From Craspedostauros australis (Eukaryota): 36,765 bases of DNA. The translations under genes were made by a program, and so were the position numbers. Each line of letters begins with the position of its first letter. Position 1 is the first letter of the stretch. This document shows, piece by piece, positions 19,451 through 33,073 of the stretch. The stretch spans positions 1 to 36,765 of the forward strand of contig JALAGF010003341.1 of the NCBI GenBank assembly GCA_030167865.1, written 5' to 3'. The notes beneath the pieces were generated by a model. That model saw nothing but the letters and a program-made list of their open reading frames with translations, was not told the origin of the DNA and did not search any database.

Positions 19451-22005
19451 CTACACCGAGGACCCTGCTACCGTGCCTGGACTCTGCTCCTGCATGTAAG
19501 CACCTCCCTTGTTTGACTTGTGCGACCGGCTGCCGGAATGATCGTCCGTGTGTTGCGTGACGCTGCCGGGCTGGCCCAGGTAGCTCTCGGCCGATCGCTT
19601 CAGTTCGTCGATGTCGGACGGAGACAGCGCTTCGCCTGCCAGCTGTCCCGTTTCCAGCGCCTCACGCACGATGTTCTTGTAGAAGAGGGCCTGCCGCGCC
19701 GTCATCTCGCCGCTGTGGATGCCGCCGTGGAATGACTTGTCCAGTCCGATGACTTCGTCCTTTGCCAAGGAGCGGAAGAGGCCCTGCTTGGAGAGGATCC
19801 AGAAGAAGGGGTACATGAGCGCCACGGTCCATGCCATGATGAAGACACAGCCGACGAGTTGGGCGCCGAGGAGGTTGCCATCGATTTCTTGGCGTTCAAA
19901 GATGGAGTAGAACAAGCCGGGGTGCTTGTCGTTTCCGTAGGCCATCTGCAGTTTGCGTGGCGTGGCGAACAGTCCGACAGCGATCATCCCCCAGATCCCG
20001 TTGAACATGTGCACGGGGATGGCGTTGACAGCGTCATCCAACCGCAGCTGGATGAGGAGCCACGAACCGAAGAGGTAGAAGATGCCCGCGAGGATGCCGA
20101 TGACGACGGATGCCCATGGATCGACGACTCCGCAGCCGGCTGTGATGGCGACCAGCCCGCTGAGAGCGCCGTTCATGACAGGGGCGATGTCGTAGAAGGA
20201 TTCGCCATTGATGATGCTCTGCGCGAGCATGTTGACACCGAGCGCTGACATGCCGGCAGATCCAGCGGCCAGAGTGGTCGTGACAGCAGCGTTTGCCGCA
20301 ATGAGATGAACCTCGTCGCCTTCGAAAAGCAGAGCGGAACCGGCATTGAAGCCGTACCATGCGAACCAAAGGATCATGGTTCCGATCATCTGTTCGTGCA
20401 TTCATAGTCGTACATTCGTGCATTTGTTCATTCGGATTGGTGGAGCCATGGTGGTGTTGATGTTCGCGACGGTGACGATGGCGATGGTGGTGTTCATGTG
20501 AAGAGGTGAGAGTTGCATGCGAAGACGGAAGGGTGCATTCGCGTGTGTGGAAGAATGCACGTTGATGTTCGTGGGATGCACAACACCAAAGCAGGATCAG
20601 GGGAGAAGCGTGAGAAACAGAAAGAGAAAGAGAAAGGACGGGTGTGAGTGCACCTGCGGAGTTTGAATGCAGATTCAGCGCTGCGAGTTTTGCAGGAAGC
20701 GGGCGCCCCGTTGTGAGATGCAAACGGCTTTCTGGTGTGGTGTCTTGATTTTTCGTTGTGAGGTTCGCCTTGTCCTGTTGACAATTTTCCCGTGCACCAA
20801 GAATGGGGAAAAAGTCGCTTTGCTGGCACCAAGAGGATACTTGATGATGAAGTCAGCTCAAGCGAGATTGCGAAACTCCCTTGGACAGTATCGATGACAC
20901 GAGCGCTTTGTCCGCATGCCATGTCAGCGCCTGTCTGCAGATTCTTGGGATCGTTGCGCCGCCCAAACGATCTTTGCGATGCGCTCCCCAGCTTGCTTTC
21001 TCTCTCTTTCTGTGCCACGTCTGGTGGGTTGACTTGGTACTGGTCGTGGTCGCACTTGTATCTGTGTTTGCATCTGTGTTTGATACATACTGCTTGATTG
21101 CAAGATCGTTGAGATTGCGTCGTCACAGCGGTGCCAAGATCGTGGATGGAGATGTTGCGCTCTTGCCGCCTCCTCCATCATCATGCCTCGCCACTCTGTC
21201 TGACGCTACTGCGCTGACTGCTTCGGAATGAACTTACCTGCAAGCTGATGCTGTGACCACGGATCTCCACGGGAACCTCGAGGGGCTCTCCCGTGACTTC
21301 GTCGTGGAATCGACCGCGCCTGGCACCCAGGATATGGGTTGCCACCAAGGCCGTGACGCCGCCCGTCAAGTGCACCACGCCGCTGCCTGCAAAGTCAATG
21401 ACGCCGATATCAAGGAAGGCGCCACCGGGTCTCGCGGGGCTGAGGAAACCTTCGGCACTCCAGATGGAATGCACGACGATGGGGTAGACCCATCCCGACA
21501 CGAAGATGGAGTAGAAGAGGTAGGCCTTCATCTTGCATCGCTCCGCCAAGGTTCCGGCCACGATGGTGACGGCGGCCGCCGAGAAGGCGTACTGGAAGAC
21601 CCAGAACGCGAGATCGTCGACGTCGACGAGGAAGAAGTTCTTCGTGCCCATGAATTGGTTGGGATTGTCGCCATCCCCAAAGGCGAAGGCATATCCCACG
21701 CTCCAGAAGCTCATGGCGGAGCCGCAGGCATCGAGCAGATTCTTGAGCATGGTGTTCTGAAGGTTCTTTCGTCGCACGGCTCCCGCGCAGACCATGGCGA
21801 AGCCTGCCTGCATGAAGAAGACGAGGGCGGCGGCGAGGACGAGGAAGATGTCTCGTGAGTAGGAGGCCTGCACTGTGATGCTGGATTGGTTGCTCTGGAC
21901 CAGCTCCTCCAGCTGCGCCATTCGATTCGTCACGCAGACCAGCAGGGCGTCGGTGGTGCCATCCGAGGAGGCGATGCATGCGCTGTACTCTTCAGTGGAG
22001 CTCAT
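19451..22005 (-). CDS. AMT: Ammonium transporter (AMT1-type), 2 exons (22005-21238, 20389-19451), ~568 aa
   Basis: Motifs FFMQAGFAM, FQYAF, GTLAER, DFAGSGVVH, LWFAWYGFN, NGALSGLVAITAGC and DDAVNAIPVH; both conserved His residues are present. The phase-0 intron 21237-20390 (CAG|gtaagt...aacag|ATG) joins HSISLQ-MIGTMILW. Confidence 0.95.
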
Positions 22006-26281: not shown

Positions 26282-27401
26282 ATGGACGAAGTGAAGAAGA
26301 TCAAAGGAGATGACCTTCTCTTGAAGGTAGGTGCGTTGTCATTGTCGTTGCCATTGTAGTTGATGGCAGTACTCACTCTACCGCTATTGTTCCTATGATA
26401 TGATCTGTCATGCATCCGTGTATGGCTTCGAAGAAGATCGGAGGCCGACTCTCACCATTCCTCCAACTTCTCCATCCATTCATCCATCCATCCATCTATC
26501 TATACTCACACGCTCACAGGTCATCAAATCCACAAAGACCGGAGATGATGCCAAAACCATCCAAAGCGATGATCACGTCCTGATTCAGATCGTCGGCAGA
26601 CAATCGAACGACCTGAACCACATCGACGGACCCATCTTTCAGGACACGAAATCCAAGTCCTGGCTGGTCAAGGCCAGCGCCTCCGATCTGCTGGTCCCCG
26701 CCATCCGCCTCTGCCTGCCGCACTGCAAGGTCGGCCAGACGGTCCATATCTGGTCCACGGCGCAGCATGCCCTCGGCGACAGCGTCCGCAAGCTCGGCAA
26801 GTACCAGCTGCCACCCAACTCCAGCGTCCTCTACACCGTCACGGTCTCCCAAATCGTCATGGACACATCGCGGTTGAATCCTTACTTCACCATCCAACTG
26901 CACAAGACGCGCAAGGAGATCGCCAACGACCTCTACCAATGCCAATTCCGATCGATGTGGCAGCGCGCCATCCTAATTTACGATGCCAGCGGCAAGGCGC
27001 TCGAGACGTTGCTCAATGGCACGTACTTTGCCAGCGTCGAATCGAATCATCCGCAACGCAACGAGACAAGGCAGCTCATGCTGGACTGCTTCAACAACGT
27101 CGTCGCCGTCTGCGTCACGGCCAAACAGTACAAGCGAGGACGCGACGCCGTGCAAACGGTGCTCAAGCATGATGCGAACAACAAGAAGGCGCTGTTGCGC
27201 AATGCCAATCTGGCGTTGATGGACGCGAAGCTGTCGGGTGGTGATCGGGCGCAGGCCATGAAGATGGCGCAAGATGCGATCACGTATCACGATGCGAAGG
27301 AGTTTGCGGAATTGGAGAAGCTGCAGACCAAACTGAAGGCGGCATTGCAAAAGGCGAAGCAGGACAAGGAGGAGGCAGAGGCGGTCCGCGAGGCCGAGTA
27401 G
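26282..27401 (+). CDS. FKBP-like domain + TPR-repeat immunophilin co-chaperone, 2 exons (26282-26326, 26520-27401), ~308 aa
   Basis: Exon 1 encodes MDEVKKIKGDDLLLK, then intron 26327-26519 (AAG|gtaggt...cacag|GTC) is in frame. FKBP-like segment: LPHCKVGQ...HALGD...LPPNSSVLYTVTV. TPR-like segments: KEIANDLY, CFNNVVAVC and NNKKALLRNA. Confidence 0.8.
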
Positions 27402-27627
27402 AGTGGAGAGGTGCGTGCATGTATGTACGGGTGTACACGTGCGGTTTGAGCCTACACCAGGCACATGTCACGCCATACCCTACCATGCCAAGCAATTGAT
27501 AACACACTGCGTTACACTTAGAGTATGCGGAGGCCGATGTTAACTCGTAGACGAGGTGTTCAGTGATCGATCCATTCTATCTGACTCGTACGTACGAGGA
27601 TTCCATCTCATGCTCCATGCACTTGCA

Positions 27628-29874
27628 TCAGAACGGCACGTTATCATAGTCTTCTGGCGCTGGCACATCCGCCTTGTCTTTGGGTGTGTACGCCCTCTTC
27701 TTCTGTGTGGGAGAATAGAACTGGTTGCCGCCGACTGCCGCGGATCGCGCCGATGTGCTGTATTCTCGTTTGGGCATGGGTTCCGAACCCACACCACCAA
27801 ATCCAAAGTGATTTGCGATGGCGCTGTACGAGCGCTCTTCCGCCTCCTGCAGCTTTTCGTAGGGGAAGTTGGACCGCTTCATCTTGTCCAGAAATGTTCG
27901 CTTGATCGTGTAGAAGTCCATGTCATCGTAAAACGAGATCACACGATCCACATCCAACTCCGTCATCCTCATCACCGACAGCTCATCTGCATCCATCGCA
28001 GTCTCATCCGCAGGACGGATCATGGAACCAAAAGGCACATCACGCTCCAGCTCCACCAACACGCGAGACAAACGGGCCTGATCCTCATTCTCCATCAACG
28101 TTTCACGACGCTTCTTCTGCTTGATATCATCCACATTCTCATAAATACCATCCAACGACCCATACTCGTTGATCAGCTGCGCGGCGATCTTCGGTCCAAT
28201 GCCTGGCACACCAGGCACGTTGTCGGCCGCATCACCTGCCAACGCCAACACATCACCCAGCTGATCCGAGTTGACGTTCCACTTCTCGACCACAGCATCA
28301 TGATCGACTCGGCTCATCTTCATGGGATCGATCATCTGACACACCCCAATGCCACCATCGCTGTCAGATGCATTGGGAGTGATGAGCTGCATGAGATCCT
28401 TGTCACCTGACAGGATGTTGACATCCATTCCCATCTGTGTGGCTTTGCATGCCAGAGTGGCGATGACATCATCTGCTTCGAAACCAGCCGCTTCCACTTG
28501 TGGTATGCCGTATGCTCTGCCGGCTTCACGGATGAGACTGAACTGAGGGATGAGATCGACGGGCACGTCGGGTCGTTGTGCTTTGTAGAGGGGATAGATC
28601 TCGTTTCTGAATGTGGGTCCAGGTGCATCGAACACGAGGACGAGTCTTGGTCGTTCTTGGTTGAGCATTCTGTTGAGCAGCATCCTGTTGAGCATGTTGC
28701 AGAATCCGAGGACGGCGCCAACGGGCATTCCGTCGCCTCTGTGCATGGGTGGCATGGAGTGGTATGCTCGGAAGATATAGGCGGATGCATCGACGAGCAG
28801 CAGCGGGTCCTTCGACCGGACCACCTGGCGTTTCTTCGACTCGCCGGCGTTGGGGGCGACGTCCGCCACAACCTTGGACATGATGGGTTTCTTGGAAGCT
28901 GCCGCTGCTTTGGGAGAACGCTTGGGTTTGGTTTGCGTCATGATGTTGAAGACGTGCGTGCCGGCCTCCCTGGCCTCCTTCGTTTTGATCACCCTGGCGC
29001 GGCGGTACTTGAGGCTGCGGTGCTCCAGGATCAATCCGGCCATGGGATTCTGATGCGCGATACCTTCCAGCGTGCTCTTGTTGGTGGACCTCCCCTCGAT
29101 GCCAAAGAGAGCCATGGAAACCTGCTTGGGACTCCCGACCTTGAATTCCTTGCCGTCGTTCATTTCGAAGATGCGCACCTCCAAACTCTCGAGGTCAAGA
29201 TCGATCTGCTCTAACGTGCTTTCCTGGTGGCTGCGTTTGCCGGGCATGGGGGATTGCTTCGTCGTCGCGCCGCGTTCATTTGGCTTGTTTGTTTTGTCTG
29301 CAGCTTGTGCAGTGACCGACGGTTTACTGCCACCGGAAGACGCAGTGGAGTCTTGATCCGGCGCTTCCTTGACTTCGGCATCACTCAAGATGTTGTCATC
29401 CGTGGCCTTCGTGGAGGCGGTCACGGGACCCGCAGACTTCTGTGGAGGCTTCTGTGCAGACTTCTGTGGAAACTTCATTGGTTGATAGCCATATTCATCC
29501 TCATCATGTGCTGTCAAATCCATACCAACATCAACGAAGTCGTTGAGCGAATCGGAAGGATCGGGCAGTGAGGAATATGACATGAAGTCGTTGAACTCAG
29601 CCCCCGACATCTCCTCAGCGTAATTGTTGATGGGCCAATAATGGCTAGAGGCCTCGTCGTCGCCGTCGTCACCGGCCTTGGAGTACAGCGTGGGCGACGA
29701 TGAATAGATGGACTGCCGTTGCTTGCGGAAGTTGTGCGAACGGCCATGCTGCTGCTTCGCTCTGTGCCTCACAGCGCGCCATGCTTGACGCTGAAACGTC
29801 CACATATGCACCACGCGAAACGACGAGGCTATCAGCAACACCGAGAGCAGCCGCCGGAGGTCAGGATTGGGCAT
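27628..29874 (-). CDS. Pol I-type 5'-3' exonuclease (flap endonuclease) with N-terminal Pol A thumb fragment, paralog 1; probably organelle-targeted
   Basis: Nuclease motifs LLVDASAYIFRAYH, VFDAPGPTFRNEIYPLYKAQR, EADDVIATL, SGDKDLMQL and the H3TH motif LAGDAADNVPGVPGIGPKIA. Thumb-like segment EFKVGSPKQVSMALFG...STNKSTLE...LILEHR. Signal-peptide-like N-terminus. Confidence 0.9.
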   Translation of the reverse strand: MPNPDLRRLLSVLLIASSFRVVHMWTFQRQAWRAVRHRAKQQHGRSHNFRKQRQSIYSSSPTLYSKAGDDGDDEASSHYWPINNYAEEMSGAEFNDFMSYSSLPDPSDSLNDFVDVGMDLTAHDEDEYGYQPMKFPQKSAQKPPQKSAGPVTASTKATDDNILSDAEVKEAPDQDSTASSGGSKPSVTAQAADKTNKPNERGATTKQSPMPGKRSHQESTLEQIDLDLESLEVRIFEMNDGKEFKVGSPKQVSMALFGIEGRSTNKSTLEGIAHQNPMAGLILEHRSLKYRRARVIKTKEAREAGTHVFNIMTQTKPKRSPKAAAASKKPIMSKVVADVAPNAGESKKRQVVRSKDPLLLVDASAYIFRAYHSMPPMHRGDGMPVGAVLGFCNMLNRMLLNRMLNQERPRLVLVFDAPGPTFRNEIYPLYKAQRPDVPVDLIPQFSLIREAGRAYGIPQVEAAGFEADDVIATLACKATQMGMDVNILSGDKDLMQLITPNASDSDGGIGVCQMIDPMKMSRVDHDAVVEKWNVNSDQLGDVLALAGDAADNVPGVPGIGPKIAAQLINEYGSLDGIYENVDDIKQKKRRETLMENEDQARLSRVLVELERDVPFGSMIRPADETAMDADELSVMRMTELDVDRVISFYDDMDFYTIKRTFLDKMKRSNFPYEKLQEAEERSYSAIANHFGFGGVGSEPMPKREYSTSARSAAVGGNQFYSPTQKKRAYTPKDKADVPAPEDYDNVPF
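27918..28798. repeat. 881-bp near-identical direct repeat, copy A (5'-3' exonuclease coding segment)
   Basis: Ungapped match to 31039-31919 (offset 3121), with about 26 substitutions counted by eye. Confidence 0.95.
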
Positions 29875-30439
29875 GGCAAACTATGAATGCGGGCTTCGTT
29901 TGCGTATGGGATGCAGAGAATGCTGCGTGTCCTCGAGTTCGTGTTGGTCCTGCACAGTGTTACTGACGATCTACTCACACTCATTGGACTGTGCGCACTG
30001 TGTTGGTTGAGGGATGTTCCGCGTCGATTTGGAAAGTTTCGCGATTTCTCGCAGTTGTGTTGCGCTTGGAAAATTGTTGGTTTGTGTTTCGGATTTTGTG
30101 GAGAATCCTCGACTCGTTCGAATCAATCTCAATTGTGCGATAGTCCACAAACGTCATGATGTGACGAGTTTAGAGGTGTTGTCCGCTCCACTCTACTCTG
30201 CTCTACCGTACTCTACTCGTACATGGTATGATCAGCCTTGACGATCACAACAGAACATTGAATCAAAGAATAGGACCGAGTTAAATTGAGGTGAACAGCT
30301 ATCTTGTTTCTGGTGGTGGAAGGTTGGTGGCGTCTGGTCCCCGGGCCACATCCCACTCTTTGGAATGGTTCCTGCGTTTACTCCTATTATTCGATTCGAC
30401 ATTGTTTCGCAAATTTTGTCGGCGCGGTCGCTGCATTCG

Positions 30440-33073
30440 CTAGAATGGGACACCGTCGTAGTCTTTGGGCGTCGGCACAGCCGCCTGCTTGCTCGCGATG
30501 ATCAGCAGAGCCTTCCGCACGTTTTCGTCTTCGTAGTAATCCAGAAATAGTTCTTCCTTGTACGATGTGAGGAAGATGTCATTGGGTGGGTCCGCAACCA
30601 AGGCCTCCCACTCATCGATGGACCTCGAGCCCTTGCTTTTGGCCTGCTTATGGGCGGAGAGATAGATTTCGGCTGGTGCGCTGGAGAGGAAGTGCTGCGT
30701 CTCTTCAGCGAGAGCAGCAAAGAACTGCCGAGTGCTCGTCGAGGGGAGGATCTGGTCCTCGCCAAGTTGTTCGGTGCGACCGCCGCTGTCGCTGTGATCG
30801 CTTTCGTTGCTATCACTGCGACGGTCGAGATTTATCTGTACCTCTCCTTGGGCGGCCGCATGCGCCGCGTCGGCGCGATCAGTTCCAAGCCTGTCTTTGT
30901 CCTTGCTGTGGTTTGGGTTTGCATTCCCTTCCATCTTGGCGCAGTCAATGCATTCGGTTGAGTTCTTTGCGGATGCCGAGGCTCCTTCGCTTTGCGGTCG
31001 CAATCGTTCTGTCATCTGCTGCTTCACCTTCGTGAATCCCATGTCATCGTAAAACGAGATCACACGATCCACATCCAACTCCGTCATCCTCATCACCGAC
31101 AGCTCACCTGCATCCATCGCAGTCTCATCCGCAGGACGGATCATGGAACCGAAAGGCACATCACGCTCCAGCTCCACCAACACGCGCGACAAACGGGCCT
31201 GATCCTCGTTCTCCATCAACGTCTCACGACGCTTCTTCTGCTTGATATCATACACATTCTCGTAAATGCCATCCAACGACCCATACTCGTTGATCAGCTG
31301 CGCGGCGATCTTCGGTCCAATGCCTGGCACACCAGGCACGTTGTCGGCAGCATCACCTGCCAACGCCAACACATCACCCAGCTGATCCGAGTTGACGTTC
31401 CACTTCTCGATCACAGCGTCATGATCGACTCGGCTCATCTTCATGGGATCGATCATCTGACACACCCCAACACCACCATCGCTGGCAGATGCATTGGGAG
31501 TGATGAGCTGCATGAGATCCTTGTCACCTGACAGGATGTTGACATCCATTCCCATCTGTGTGGCTTTGCATGCCAGAGTGGCGATGACATCATCTGCTTC
31601 GAAACCAGCCGCTTCCACTTGTGGTATGCCGTATGCTCTTCCGGCTTCGCGGATGAGACTGAACTGAGGGATGAGATCGACTGGCACGTCGGGTCGTTGT
31701 GCTTTGTAGAGGGGATATATCTCGTTTCTGAATGTGGGTCCAGGTGCATCGAACACGAGGACGAGTCTTGGTCGCTCTTGGTTGAGCATTCTATTGAGCA
31801 GCATTCTGTTGAGCATGTTGCAGAATCCGAGGACAGCGCCGACGGGCATCCCGTCACCTCTGTGCATGGGTGGCATGGAGTGGTATGCTCGGAAGATGTA
31901 GGCGGATGCATCGACGAGCCACAAGGCGTCGTCGTCGACGGCTTCTGACTGCTGTTCGCTTGATGCATCCATGGATATCGTGCTGTCGGCTGAAAAGTTG
32001 CCGTGTGCGTGTTTCAACGCAGTTCGTGCGCGCCGTTTCCGCCAGAAGTGGCGCATCTTCATTCGTTGGTGCTCTTTCTTCCTTTGCAGACGCGACAGCG
32101 ACGACTTGATAGTGCGATGCTTCAGCATCAACGAAGCAAATTCGCTGTGCCGTGCCATTCTCTCCAACACCTGCTTGCTGGTGGATCGCGTCGCGTTGCC
32201 GAACAGGAGCTTGGCGACCTGCCGGGGACTGTTGACATTGAATTCGGTGCCGTTCGCATGATTCGCAATGATGGCTTCCTCGACCCTCCGAAGCTGCCGG
32301 CTCGCTTCATCCAGCCGATTCTCGAGATACTGTCCGCGTCCACCATACTTGGCGCGCTCCACGAAGAACTTGTATGCGTCTTCATCGATTCCAACCAAAT
32401 GGGAATTTTTGCCCAATTCCACATGGCGCAGTGCAAAATAGCCTTCGGGAACGCTGTTGGCCCTGTCGGTCATCCTGAAGGATGGTTCATAGCCGTCGCT
32501 GTTGCCATCGCCGTGCTCGTCATAAGTATCACCTCCATTGATGCCACGCTGTTTGTGAAACTGATTGATGTACTCGTTGTCGATTGCTCTCCAATATTGC
32601 GCGCTGCTATCCTCCCCCAGTTGTTTCTGTACATCCAAACTGGTACTCATCCTCATTTCGTCACTCCAAAGTCCATCTTCTTTCAGTTGGATTGGTGCAT
32701 CTCCCGCTTCCATCGTTCCATTGACGAGTGGATCATGCGCCTGGGGCGATGGTTTGCCATCCTCTTCTCCCACAGAACGTCGCTGTGCACGGATTCGCGT
32801 GGAAGTTGCACATCTGAATCGATCCGCTTGTGTCCTTCCTCTGTTGTCAGCTCGGAGTCGCAGGAGGATGCCGCCAGCATGGAGAATCGCACCGAAACCC
32901 GAAGATGGCGGGGTTGTGCGGATCCATGTCTCTGGCTTGGCAACATTTCCGACAGTGCTGCTGCCATTGAGGGGATGGAAACCACTGGCCACTCCCTTGC
33001 ACCCATCAAAGCCCGTGTTGCATGGCAGCAACAGCATGATGCGCGTCAACAATCCCAACCACCGACATGTCAT
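30440..33073 (-). CDS. Pol I-type 5'-3' exonuclease with N-terminal Pol A thumb fragment, paralog 2; probably organelle-targeted
   Basis: Same nuclease motifs as paralog 1. Thumb-like segment EFNVNSPRQVAKLLFG...STSKQVLERMA...LMLKHR. Hydrophobic N-terminus followed by VASGFHP. Confidence 0.88.
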   Translation of the reverse strand: MTCRWLGLLTRIMLLLPCNTGFDGCKGVASGFHPLNGSSTVGNVAKPETWIRTTPPSSGFGAILHAGGILLRLRADNRGRTQADRFRCATSTRIRAQRRSVGEEDGKPSPQAHDPLVNGTMEAGDAPIQLKEDGLWSDEMRMSTSLDVQKQLGEDSSAQYWRAIDNEYINQFHKQRGINGGDTYDEHGDGNSDGYEPSFRMTDRANSVPEGYFALRHVELGKNSHLVGIDEDAYKFFVERAKYGGRGQYLENRLDEASRQLRRVEEAIIANHANGTEFNVNSPRQVAKLLFGNATRSTSKQVLERMARHSEFASLMLKHRTIKSSLSRLQRKKEHQRMKMRHFWRKRRARTALKHAHGNFSADSTISMDASSEQQSEAVDDDALWLVDASAYIFRAYHSMPPMHRGDGMPVGAVLGFCNMLNRMLLNRMLNQERPRLVLVFDAPGPTFRNEIYPLYKAQRPDVPVDLIPQFSLIREAGRAYGIPQVEAAGFEADDVIATLACKATQMGMDVNILSGDKDLMQLITPNASASDGGVGVCQMIDPMKMSRVDHDAVIEKWNVNSDQLGDVLALAGDAADNVPGVPGIGPKIAAQLINEYGSLDGIYENVYDIKQKKRRETLMENEDQARLSRVLVELERDVPFGSMIRPADETAMDAGELSVMRMTELDVDRVISFYDDMGFTKVKQQMTERLRPQSEGASASAKNSTECIDCAKMEGNANPNHSKDKDRLGTDRADAAHAAAQGEVQINLDRRSDSNESDHSDSGGRTEQLGEDQILPSTSTRQFFAALAEETQHFLSSAPAEIYLSAHKQAKSKGSRSIDEWEALVADPPNDIFLTSYKEELFLDYYEDENVRKALLIIASKQAAVPTPKDYDGVPF
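31039..31919. repeat. 881-bp near-identical direct repeat, copy B
   Basis: Ungapped match to 27918-28798. Confidence 0.95.

Follow-up and report, generated by a model that had tools for sequence, protein, structure and literature searches.

The locus raises the question why two paralogous nuclease genes, whose C-terminal extensions have little else in common, close with almost the same short acidic tail ending in V-P-F, and whether this tail could dock the enzymes on another protein in the manner of the tip of bacterial SSB (single-stranded DNA-binding protein). Components of bacterial, phage-like and eukaryotic kind are pieced together in the replication system of diatom organelles. Here a 12-residue tail, kept almost unchanged among diatoms and bolidophytes, offers a concrete experimental handle. 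The window, the whole stretch of DNA analyzed, comprises 36,765 nucleotides; the features discussed are listed in Table 1.

Nuclease domains and C-terminal tails of the two paralogs

Judged by their domains, both genes encode Pol I-type 5′-3′ exonucleases. Pfam detects the PIN-like nuclease domain PF02739 (E 3.5e-48 in P0001 and 7.6e-48 in P0002, both above the cut-off) and the H3TH/SAM-fold DNA-binding domain PF01367 (7.4e-30 and 5.7e-29). Nine acidic residues, candidates for the catalytic metal-binding carboxylates, are unchanged in 116 sequences (D362, D416, E466, D468, D469, D491, D493, D548 and D551 in P0001 numbering). The top structural matches found with Foldseek were 9L55/9L56, the Mycobacterium smegmatis FEN structures 6C33-36, ExoIX (3ZD8-3ZDE) and the Taq and Pol1 5′ nucleases, with E values of 1e-17 to 1e-12; FEN1 and PCNA-FEN1 structures were also among the fold matches. 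These Pfam matches and the relatives described below support the preliminary reading of the genes as nuclease paralogs: both encode 5′ nucleases of the Pol I type, and the nuclear genome that carries them is diatom-like.

The nuclease is preceded by a fragment related to the thumb of family-A polymerases. In P0001 it matches PF00476 over profile positions 6-94 of 381 (E 1.7e-06), and the bit scores of 27.7 and 29.2 lie below the curated cut-off of 34.3 in both paralogs. A complete family-A polymerase domain with palm, fingers and thumb is absent, as only profile positions 3-94 of 381 are matched. The fragment of paralog 1 was matched weakly by phmmer to the Pol I chains of Bst and Klenow (about residues 205-310), is modeled with a pLDDT of 97-98, and is nearly invariant from N245 to R286. 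The OB fold of SSB (PF00436) was not found in P0001 or P0002 at E ≤ 0.01.

The translations confirm that both proteins close with a tail of the type DYD[NG]VPF-COOH. The last 15 residues are KADVPAPEDYDNVPF in paralog 1 and QAAVPTPKDYDGVPF in paralog 2, and a stop codon follows the terminal Phe directly: TGA (27628-27630) after ...NVPF and TAG (30440-30442) after ...GVPF. Position −4 is thus N or G, not D. The 42-nt ranges first assigned to the tails place them correctly, apart from the trivial point that they hold the stop and only 13 codons, one fewer than the 14-residue pattern given with them. In a BLASTP comparison of the paralogs the tails form a segment of their own, with 10 of 15 residues identical (E 0.003, for a single comparison). 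The extensions are of unequal length (about 88 and 191 amino acids) and cannot be aligned outside the tail, where aligned blocks have 22-42% nucleotide identity; here too the first reading was correct.

Table 1. Features of the two nuclease genes (window coordinates)
Feature	Position	Strand	Description	Basis
Paralog 1 (P0001)	27628..29874	(−)	748 aa, stop codon included; predicted organellar-type Pol I-derived 5′-3′ exonuclease / flap endonuclease	ORF and translation
Paralog 2 (P0002)	30440..33073	(−)	877 aa, stop codon included; architecture as paralog 1, C-terminal extension longer	
C-terminal tail, paralog 1	27631..27666	(−)	VPAPEDYDNVPF-COOH	Translation and family consensus; AlphaFold pLDDT 67-82
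C-terminal tail, paralog 2	30443..30478	(−)	VPTPKDYDGVPF-COOH	Translation and BLASTP between paralogs
Linker, paralog 1 (residues 695-731)	27682..27792	(−)	Predicted disordered, unconserved	pLDDT <50; no phmmer match
Nuclease core, paralog 1	28024..28803	(−)	PIN-like residues 358-532, H3TH/SAM fold residues 535-617	Pfam
Nuclease core, paralog 2	31145..31924	(−)	Residues 384-558 and 561-643	Pfam
Family-A polymerase thumb fragment, paralog 1	28984..29220	(−)	Residues 219-297, N-terminal to nuclease	PF00476
Polymerase-thumb fragment, paralog 2	32090..32329	(−)	Residues 249-328	PF00476 profile positions 3-91, E 6e-07

Contigs of one sequencing run of uncertain kind (X1) cover positions 27400-28734, 30276-30748 and 30874-31034; they show neither a difference nor a joint there. 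The sequence is therefore unbroken through both tails, stops and 3′ flanks; the contigs cannot serve as proof of transcription.

Conservation of the tail among relatives

The pool of 248 relatives includes 130 proteins in which the nuclease is internal and the core complete, and 126 of these end in [VIL]PF, with 101 distinct 12-mers among their tails. Orthologs thus keep the ending on which the proposed SSB likeness was built. The consensus is [IVP]-P-x-P-[ED]-[DE]-[YF]-x-D-V-P-F-COOH. Among the best 120 relatives a PF end is present in 117 (VPF 112, IPF 4, LPF 1; 84 distinct 12-mers), and in these 117 the counts by position are P 112 at −11, P 107 at −9, E/D 103 at −8, D/E 111 at −7, Y/F 115 at −6, D 94 at −4, V 112 at −3, and P and F 117 each at −2 and −1. 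The commonest residue at −5 is Lys (31/117). Exchange of V for I at −3 also occurs inside the family, with DIPF in P0009, P0012, P0020 and P0125 and ...VDEIPF in P0153. Orthologs derived from MMETSP transcriptomes (P0022, P0093, P0094 and P0109) share the same ending, which argues that the tail is the true C-terminus.

The pool also contains 94 proteins with an N-terminal nuclease. The tail is missing from 89 of them, which are mostly about 900 amino acids long and end in the way usual for bacterial Pol I, and the five that carry it are all 310-413 amino acids long and resemble N-terminally cut copies of the eukaryotic type. Since the tail is found in 126/130 complete relatives of the same architecture against 0/89 of these N-terminal-nuclease proteins, its occurrence is beyond chance. 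Within the sampled relatives it is confined to a eukaryotic clade of diatoms and their sister algae, the bolidophytes.

Over their last 9 residues the tails have a net charge that averages about −2.6, and a basic stretch precedes them. An acid is present at −4 or −5 in 94 of the 101 distinct tails. Of the 23 tails that lack an acid at −4, 16 have one at −5, as compared to 20 of the other 78 (Fisher p 3e-4, for sequences that are related), which suggests compensation within the tail.

The rest of the extension behaves differently. When the last 15 residues are left out, either extension gives 0 phmmer matches at E ≤ 10 in 120 relatives, and residues 695-731 of paralog 1 are modeled by AlphaFold with a pLDDT below 50. 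The predicted disorder and the unconserved sequence agree with the earlier proposal that the tail stands at the end of a disordered linker. The nuclease cores of the paralogs are 93-100% identical in DNA as a result of gene conversion, while the tails lie outside that tract and have 6 synonymous differences within their 10 shared codons. In view of the unmatched linkers, the synonymous divergence of the tails and their position outside the conversion tract, the tail is maintained by selection.

Resemblance to the SSB tip

Both the SSB C-terminus (...DDDIPF) and the nuclease tail form the very end of their protein and follow a disordered linker. They have in common an invariant Phe as last residue with Pro before it, an aliphatic side chain at −3, an acid close by, and an aromatic residue and a Pro upstream of the tip. 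The end of Escherichia coli SSB, ...PPMDFDDDIPF, has Pro, acid, aromatic, acid, aliphatic, Pro and Phe in the same order as the nuclease tail. The Phe, the Pro, the aliphatic residue and the adjacent acid are features that PMC10164576 describes as essential for SSB docking; there the penultimate Pro is the ssb-113 site, the terminal Phe is indispensable, the α-carboxyl is anchored and the Asp residues lie on a basic ridge. A V at −3 also has a counterpart, as DIPF, DLPF and DVPF tips are all tabulated for SSBs and the SSB of Desulfotalea psychrophila ends in DVPF (PMC3991886, Table 1).

There are also clear differences. The protein that carries the nuclease tail has no detectable OB fold, the aromatic residue is one position nearer the end, a single acid adjoins V-P-F, and −5 is often Lys, which would be awkward for docking on a basic ridge. 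The run of Asp (DDD or D[DE]) before the aliphatic residue is absent from the nuclease tails, which have one acid, at −4 (D 94/117) or −5. Proteobacterial SSB-like ORFs that were sampled end in D[DE]IPF in 103/111 cases and in VPF in 0/111. With a 6-column SSB-tip profile built from these ORFs, 41 distinct nuclease tips scored between −5.5 and 14.2 bits with the median at 2.0, compared to 20.8-24.8 for the SSBs, and 11 of the 41 outscored the best of 1034 background C-termini.

The idea of an SSB-tip mimic therefore needs qualification. The Phe, Pro, aliphatic −3 and adjacent acid are shared and DVPF occurs on a real SSB, but the tail is not the canonical DDDIPF and scores poorly against it. 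The likeness is real but partial. The tail is a genuine, conserved C-terminal motif, which we read as one of the docking type, a variant of the SSB tip placed on an enzyme that is not an SSB. Literature searches found no earlier description of this motif.

Possible functions of the tail

The explanation that we favor, with slightly better than even confidence, is that the tail serves as a short linear motif for docking, which tethers the nuclease to an organellar replication or repair protein. The motif would be made up of acidic residues with a single aromatic one among them, the [VI]-P-F end and the free carboxylate, and a flexible, rather basic linker would present it behind a stand-alone Pol I-type 5′ nuclease that may remove primers and cut flaps in diatom and bolidophyte organelles. 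Binding could proceed as with the bacterial SSB tip: a hydrophobic pocket of the partner would take up the Phe at the end, basic residues of the partner would hold the carboxylate, and the neighboring acids would lie along a basic ridge. The nuclease would thus be kept at the replication or repair apparatus of the organelle.

As partners, the likeliest candidates would be the organellar family-A polymerase (POP), which has no 5′ nuclease of its own, or proteins of a kind that has an SSB-tip pocket in bacteria, such as plastid DnaG primase, RecG or RNase H. For plant OEX1, yeast two-hybrid assays showed an interaction with POL1A and POL1B, the polymerases of its organelles, as stated in a preprint (10.1101/2024.11.05.621957). 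Two further papers report that diatom plastids use DnaB and DnaG (PMC3914683) and that in E. coli the SSB tip is a ligand of DnaG (PMC5872125).

A more elaborate version of the docking mechanism is tentative and, in our estimate, rather doubtful. Here the tail would re-assemble a split Pol I. In diatom organelles the client nuclease would have taken over the docking tip from SSB, and it would compete with or replace SSB at the tip pocket that the organellar polymerase or the plastid DnaG/DnaB primosome offers. The outcome would be a hand-off switch by which primer removal reaches every new Okazaki fragment, a trick that tailed phage primases and DUF669 proteins would share. If the partner is indeed the organellar polymerase or primase, a Pol I that was split into polymerase and nuclease proteins would be functionally rejoined, and the SSB-tip docking principle would reach into eukaryotic organelles, with the tip on the client enzyme.

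The other explanations differ in what the tail would contact. It had also been proposed that the tail regulates the DNA-binding surface of the nuclease itself: as a DNA mimic, it would fold onto the basic surface or onto the thumb fragment and be released by the substrate or a partner. The acidic character of the tail, behind a basic stretch, would fit such a cis contact, as would the rise of the pLDDT in the full-length AlphaFold model to 67-82 in the tail after values below 50 in the linker. However, the tail reaches a pLDDT of 85-91 in a construct of residues 660-748 in which both the nuclease core and the thumb fragment are absent. The confidence in the tail is therefore independent of these parts, and the raised pLDDT was rejected as a sign of cis docking since the tail-only control is even higher. 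Complex prediction of residues 210-692 with tail residues 712-748, made with alignments unused and without controls, scored 0.12 and 0.15 where the mark is 0.34, and speaks neither for nor against a contact. Autoregulation gained nothing from the AlphaFold confidence, and we consider it unlikely. With reversed polarity, the tail would bind an organellar ssDNA-binding protein, or nucleoid proteins bound to ssDNA, and load the nuclease on SSB-coated flaps without a classical SSB-tip pocket. The flap and gap substrates of the enzyme are the ones that SSB would coat and the basic linker followed by the acidic tip would make a bipartite handle, but PMC4166229 reports that the SSB of red-lineage plastids had yet to be identified. 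This arrangement seems quite unlikely.

Two further readings would place the tail outside replisome docking. As a C-terminal signal for a protease or sorting factor, for example one with a PDZ-type reader, it could govern turnover or sub-organellar placement. PDZ domains read C-termini of the hydrophobic-x-hydrophobic kind with a free carboxylate, and the tail end is of this kind. Yet 12 conserved residues, including two prolines, two acids and an aromatic residue, go beyond the usual needs of a degron, and the presence of the same tail on phage replication proteins points to DNA metabolism. A signal of this sort is very unlikely. That the tail is a neutral relic or an annotation artefact is exceedingly improbable; no point in its favor was found, and it is contradicted by the retention and diversity of the tail in complete relatives (126/130, 101 distinct 12-mers), the synonymous differences between the paralog tails and the identical ending of transcript-derived orthologs.

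Comparison with other systems

Searches outside the family were made with the tail itself. A phmmer search of PDB sequences with each paralog tail (25 aa) gave 0 matches at E ≤ 10, with queries too short to inform. A word-index search with the tail of P0021 gave no candidate among proteins of 30-395 aa; among those of 396-1260 aa it returned the query alone and missed known tailed members, so that both blanks are weightless. In a metagenome scan for the strict tail, 0 of the 29 ORFs scanned with Pfam were PF00436 SSBs.

The same ending is found on phage replication proteins. A phage DNA primase (L003; phrog_1156, 1.3e-60; L158 in IMG/VR) and a DUF669 SSB-like protein (L040) both end in P[DE][DE]FxDVPF, and prophage DUF669 proteins have SSB-like tips that are said, in the part of PMC13687109 at hand, to mimic the SSB C-terminus. 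These are likewise replication proteins, non-SSB or SSB-like, but they come from prokaryotic viruses and belong to unrelated protein families. The likeness may reflect convergence or the common use of host SSB-tip pockets. Acidic tails with a terminal Phe are also present on T7 gp2.5 and gp4, where they dock on T7 polymerase; as far as we are aware these tails lack the V-P-F end.

Nuclear FEN1 is similar in being a flap nuclease that is tethered to a replisome hub through a short motif near its C-terminus. It differs in the hub (PCNA), in the compartment and in the motif, since a PIP box is not present in the diatom tails. PIP boxes are of the type Qxx[LIM]xx[FY][FY] and β-clamp motifs of the type QL[SD]LF, and neither is present in the last 12 consensus positions, which have no conserved Q or L.

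Also close are plant OEX1 and OEX2 and the ‘plastid-localized exonuclease 1’ of entries 9L55/9L56, the two structures that match the model best (E about 1e-17, 25-27% identity). No relevant paper was found in the literature under ‘plastid-localized exonuclease’ or PLEX1, and in the available portion of the OEX1 preprint (10.1101/2024.11.05.621957) the term ‘C-terminal’ is absent and no tail motif is described. Like the diatom proteins, these plant enzymes are stand-alone 5′-3′ exonucleases or flap endonucleases derived from Pol I, and OEX1 and OEX2, as far as the accessible sources describe them, serve organelle genomes whose polymerase (POP) has no 5′ nuclease domain. The diatom proteins differ in that they add a polymerase-thumb fragment before the nuclease.

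Gene organization and neighbourhood

The tandem nuclease paralogs P0001 and P0002 share the Pfam domain order PF00476 fragment, PF02739, PF01367. The PIN-like 5'-3' exonuclease domain (PF02739) is matched at about 1e-48 and the H3TH/SAM fold (PF01367) at about 1e-29 in both ORFs; the match to family-A polymerase (PF00476) is weak in both: it stays under the cut-off and spans positions 3-94 of the 381 in the profile. They belong to the Pol I 5' nuclease family, not to the SSB family; among solved chains, M. smegmatis and Taq Pol I are closest by sequence. The polymerase piece is a thumb-region fragment from the start of that domain and matches residues ~205-245 of the Bst large fragment and 233-310 of the Klenow chain. 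It contains residues that are nearly invariant throughout the family, and it may be a handle for duplex DNA. The fragment precedes the 5' nuclease, which is the opposite of the domain order in Pol I.

The surrounding ORFs are of eukaryotic type: they encode a RING finger, a CRAL/TRIO domain, ankyrin repeats and, split in two, an ammonium transporter. The transporter halves are separate ORFs with ~780 nt between them, probably a single gene with an intron or frame change. By eye, P0001 begins with a signal-peptide-like stretch followed by ...ASS-F, which we take to resemble the plastid-targeting cleavage motif of diatoms. Named relatives come from the diatoms Mayamaea, Seminavis, Fistulifera, Cylindrotheca, Nitzschia, Pseudo-nitzschia, Chaetoceros, Leptocylindrus and Proboscia and the bolidophyte Triparma.

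Features of the two nuclease genes and the nearby transporter ORFs
Feature	Position	Strand	Remark
P0001 ORF	27628-29874	minus	748 aa, tandem with P0002
P0002 ORF	30440-33073	minus	877 aa, tandem with P0001
P0001 residues 1-30	29785-29874	minus	signal-peptide-like, by eye
Thumb-region fragment, P0001	28984-29220	minus	PF00476, ~80 residues
Thumb-region fragment, P0002	32090-32329	minus	PF00476, ~80 residues
Shared core tract, P0001	27910-28785	minus	~880 nt, 93-100% nt identity
Shared core tract, P0002	31031-31906	minus	~880 nt, 93-100% nt identity
Ammonium transporter half	19454-20401	minus	PF00909 positions 193-395
Ammonium transporter half	21184-22005	minus	PF00909 positions 2-191

The tail and its conservation

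P0001 and P0002 end in KADVPAPEDYDNVPF and QAAVPTPKDYDGVPF, respectively. The preliminary description held that both terminate in a shared motif at the end of C-terminal extensions that differ in length and cannot be aligned, and both points were borne out. The last 15 residues align as a segment of their own (10/15 identical, E 0.003 in a single BLASTP comparison), and the extensions, about 88 and about 191 aa long, are not alignable outside the tail, the blocks that do align having 22-42% nucleotide identity. Without their last 15 residues, the extensions gave no match at E<=10 among 120 relatives.

The nuclease cores (P0001 residues about 364-655) are nearly identical in DNA, and the flanks of this tract, polymerase fragment included, fall to 25-64%; the genes look like old tandem paralogs in which gene conversion has kept the cores alike. 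The high-identity tract excludes the tails, whose 10 shared codons differ at six synonymous sites and whose stop codons differ too. Judged from sequence, it is the tail itself on which selection acts.

Among the best 120 of 7998 relatives at E<=0.001 (8000 candidates scored), 117 end in PF (112 VPF, 4 IPF, 1 LPF), with 84 distinct 12-mer tails and 109 matches to the extended pattern, which is far beyond chance. The exceptions are P0086, in which further residues follow the motif, P0099, ending in ...DDVSF, and P0112, which lacks the motif. These relatives were pooled with the best 150 of 28631 matches at E<=0.001 from an exhaustive search of cluster representatives, and the resulting 248 were classed by nuclease position and core completeness. 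The tail ([VIL]PF) is present in 126 of the 130 proteins with an internal nuclease and a complete core (not in P0086, P0099, P0127 and P0133), in 3 of 24 with an internal nuclease from a truncated gene model, and in 5 of 94 with the nuclease at the N-terminus. The latter five are pieces of 310-413 aa that resemble N-terminally cut eukaryotic-type proteins; N-terminal-nuclease proteins are mostly ~900 aa long with the usual Pol I ending and thus bacterial Pol I-like. This distribution argues that the tail is a trait of the eukaryotic clade, not inherited from bacterial Pol I. Since transcriptome-derived orthologs share the same ending, the stop after Phe is a real protein end. The P0133 cluster (six members: P0133, P0264-P0268) has a complete core and stops right after it, with neither extension nor tail, and is a genuine tail-less variant.

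Counting the terminal Phe as −1, 94 of 101 distinct tails have an acid at −4 or −5. Of the 23 tails with a non-acidic −4, 16 have an acid at −5, compared with 20 of the other 78 (p 3e-4), a compensation that is indicative only because the sequences are related. Both window genes have a non-acidic −4.

Predicted structure and possible role

In an AlphaFold model of P0001 built with 116 sequences, three parts are confident: the nuclease, the polymerase fragment in front of it (pLDDT 97-98 at residues 215-305) and C-terminal helices to ~690. Residues 1-205 and 695-731 are predicted to be disordered. By structure, the model is closest to 'plastid-localized exonuclease 1' (9L55/9L56), mycobacterial FEN, ExoIX and Pol I 5' nucleases. 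Confidence climbs again in the tail (pLDDT 67 at 731-740, 82 at 741-748). Mean net charge is about −2.6 in the last 9 residues and about +3.6 in the preceding 15.

We lean towards reading the tail as an SSB-tip-type docking peptide through which the nuclease, itself a stand-alone enzyme, would be tethered to some component of organellar DNA replication or repair. This reading draws on three points. Organellar family-A polymerases (POP) have no 5' nuclease, and yeast two-hybrid assays show the plant organellar exonuclease OEX1 interacting with them (preprint 10.1101/2024.11.05.621957), an interaction also stated in the title of PMC12164749; DnaB and DnaG are used in diatom plastids (PMC3914683, PMC4166229); and E. 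coli DnaG binds the SSB tip (PMC5872125). Autoregulation, also raised in the preliminary description, would instead have the tail act in cis on the nuclease's own domains as an inhibitor. In the models this alternative has lost its only support, as the confidence of the tail is independent of the core: in a construct of residues 660-748, which lacks the core, the tail still reached pLDDT 85-91 (14 sequences). As to docking, no description of such a tail on organellar nucleases was found in the main texts of open-access papers, and the OEX1 preprint (10.1101/2024.11.05.621957) has 0 occurrences of 'C-terminal' and 0 of 'diatom'.

The same ending occurs elsewhere. Metagenome contigs were scanned for the pattern P-[DE]-[DE]-[YF]-x-D-V-P-F with TRR (stop codons, but also TGG) as the next codon. 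There were 43 loci: 18 of this nuclease family (16 by Pfam, 2 by tail only), 12 other ORFs of at least 50 aa with a real stop, 7 with TGG instead of a stop and 6 very short ORFs. Among the 12 are a phage DNA primase (L003; DUF5906 and PriCT_2, phrog_1156 at 1.3e-60), a fragment with weak likeness to primases (L014), the phage SSB-like DUF669 protein L040 and two similar members of a small family without assigned function (L001, L035); all five end in P[DE][DE][FY]xDVPF. The tailed primase and DUF669 protein show that the tail recurs on non-SSB replication proteins; SSB-like tips have been noted on prophage DUF669 proteins (PMC13687109). The contigs of L003 (= L158) and L037 are also present in IMG/VR. 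The further ORFs of that group, L010, L011, L013, L015, L016, L019 and L038, had no family match, PF00436 SSB was not among the 29 scan ORFs checked against Pfam, and none of the eukaryote-like scan loci came from a family other than this nuclease.

Comparison with the SSB tip

In SSB-tip docking, a hydrophobic pocket takes the terminal Phe and a basic lip its carboxylate, a basic ridge accommodates the Asp residues, the penultimate Pro matters (ssb-113), and loss of the terminal Phe abolishes binding (PMC10164576). The DDDIPF hexapeptide is termed highly conserved (PMC5872125), and tabulated tips include DIPF, DLPF and, for Desulfotalea, DVPF (PMC3991886, Table 1). In our samples, 74 of 80 gammaproteobacterial SSB-like ORFs end in DDDIPF and 29 of 31 from a phylum-wide set in D[DE]IPF, with VPF in none of either. 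Eight SSB-like ORFs (L127, L129 and 6 of the 80 in L045-L124) have no canonical tip, some ending ...YAIS-like; they may be tip-less paralogs or wrongly chosen frames. In a subgroup of SSBs from Pseudomonadota (L135, L138, L140, L145, L151), ...PDFNDVPV or similar directly precedes the DDDIPF tip and resembles the nuclease PEDYxDVP stretch, which could be coincidence or a hint to the origin of the tail.

On a six-column profile from the sampled proteobacterial tips, 41 distinct nuclease tips had a median of 2.0 bits, the range for SSBs was 20.8-24.8, and the highest value for 1034 other C-termini was 2.0 bits. This low score and the lack of VPF in the SSB sample limit the likeness claimed in the preliminary description to general acidity and the final three or four residues. 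Four of five sequence features of an SSB-tip motif are present; the acidic run of the SSB tip is not conserved in the nuclease tail. Several nuclease-family members exchange V for I, and P0153 ends in ...VDEIPF. The E. coli SSB C-terminus (K-12 record, ...NEPPMDFDDDIPF) and the nuclease consensus, [IVP]-P-x-P-[ED]-[DE]-[YF]-x-D-V-P-F, have Pro, acid, aromatic, acid, aliphatic, Pro and Phe in the same order.
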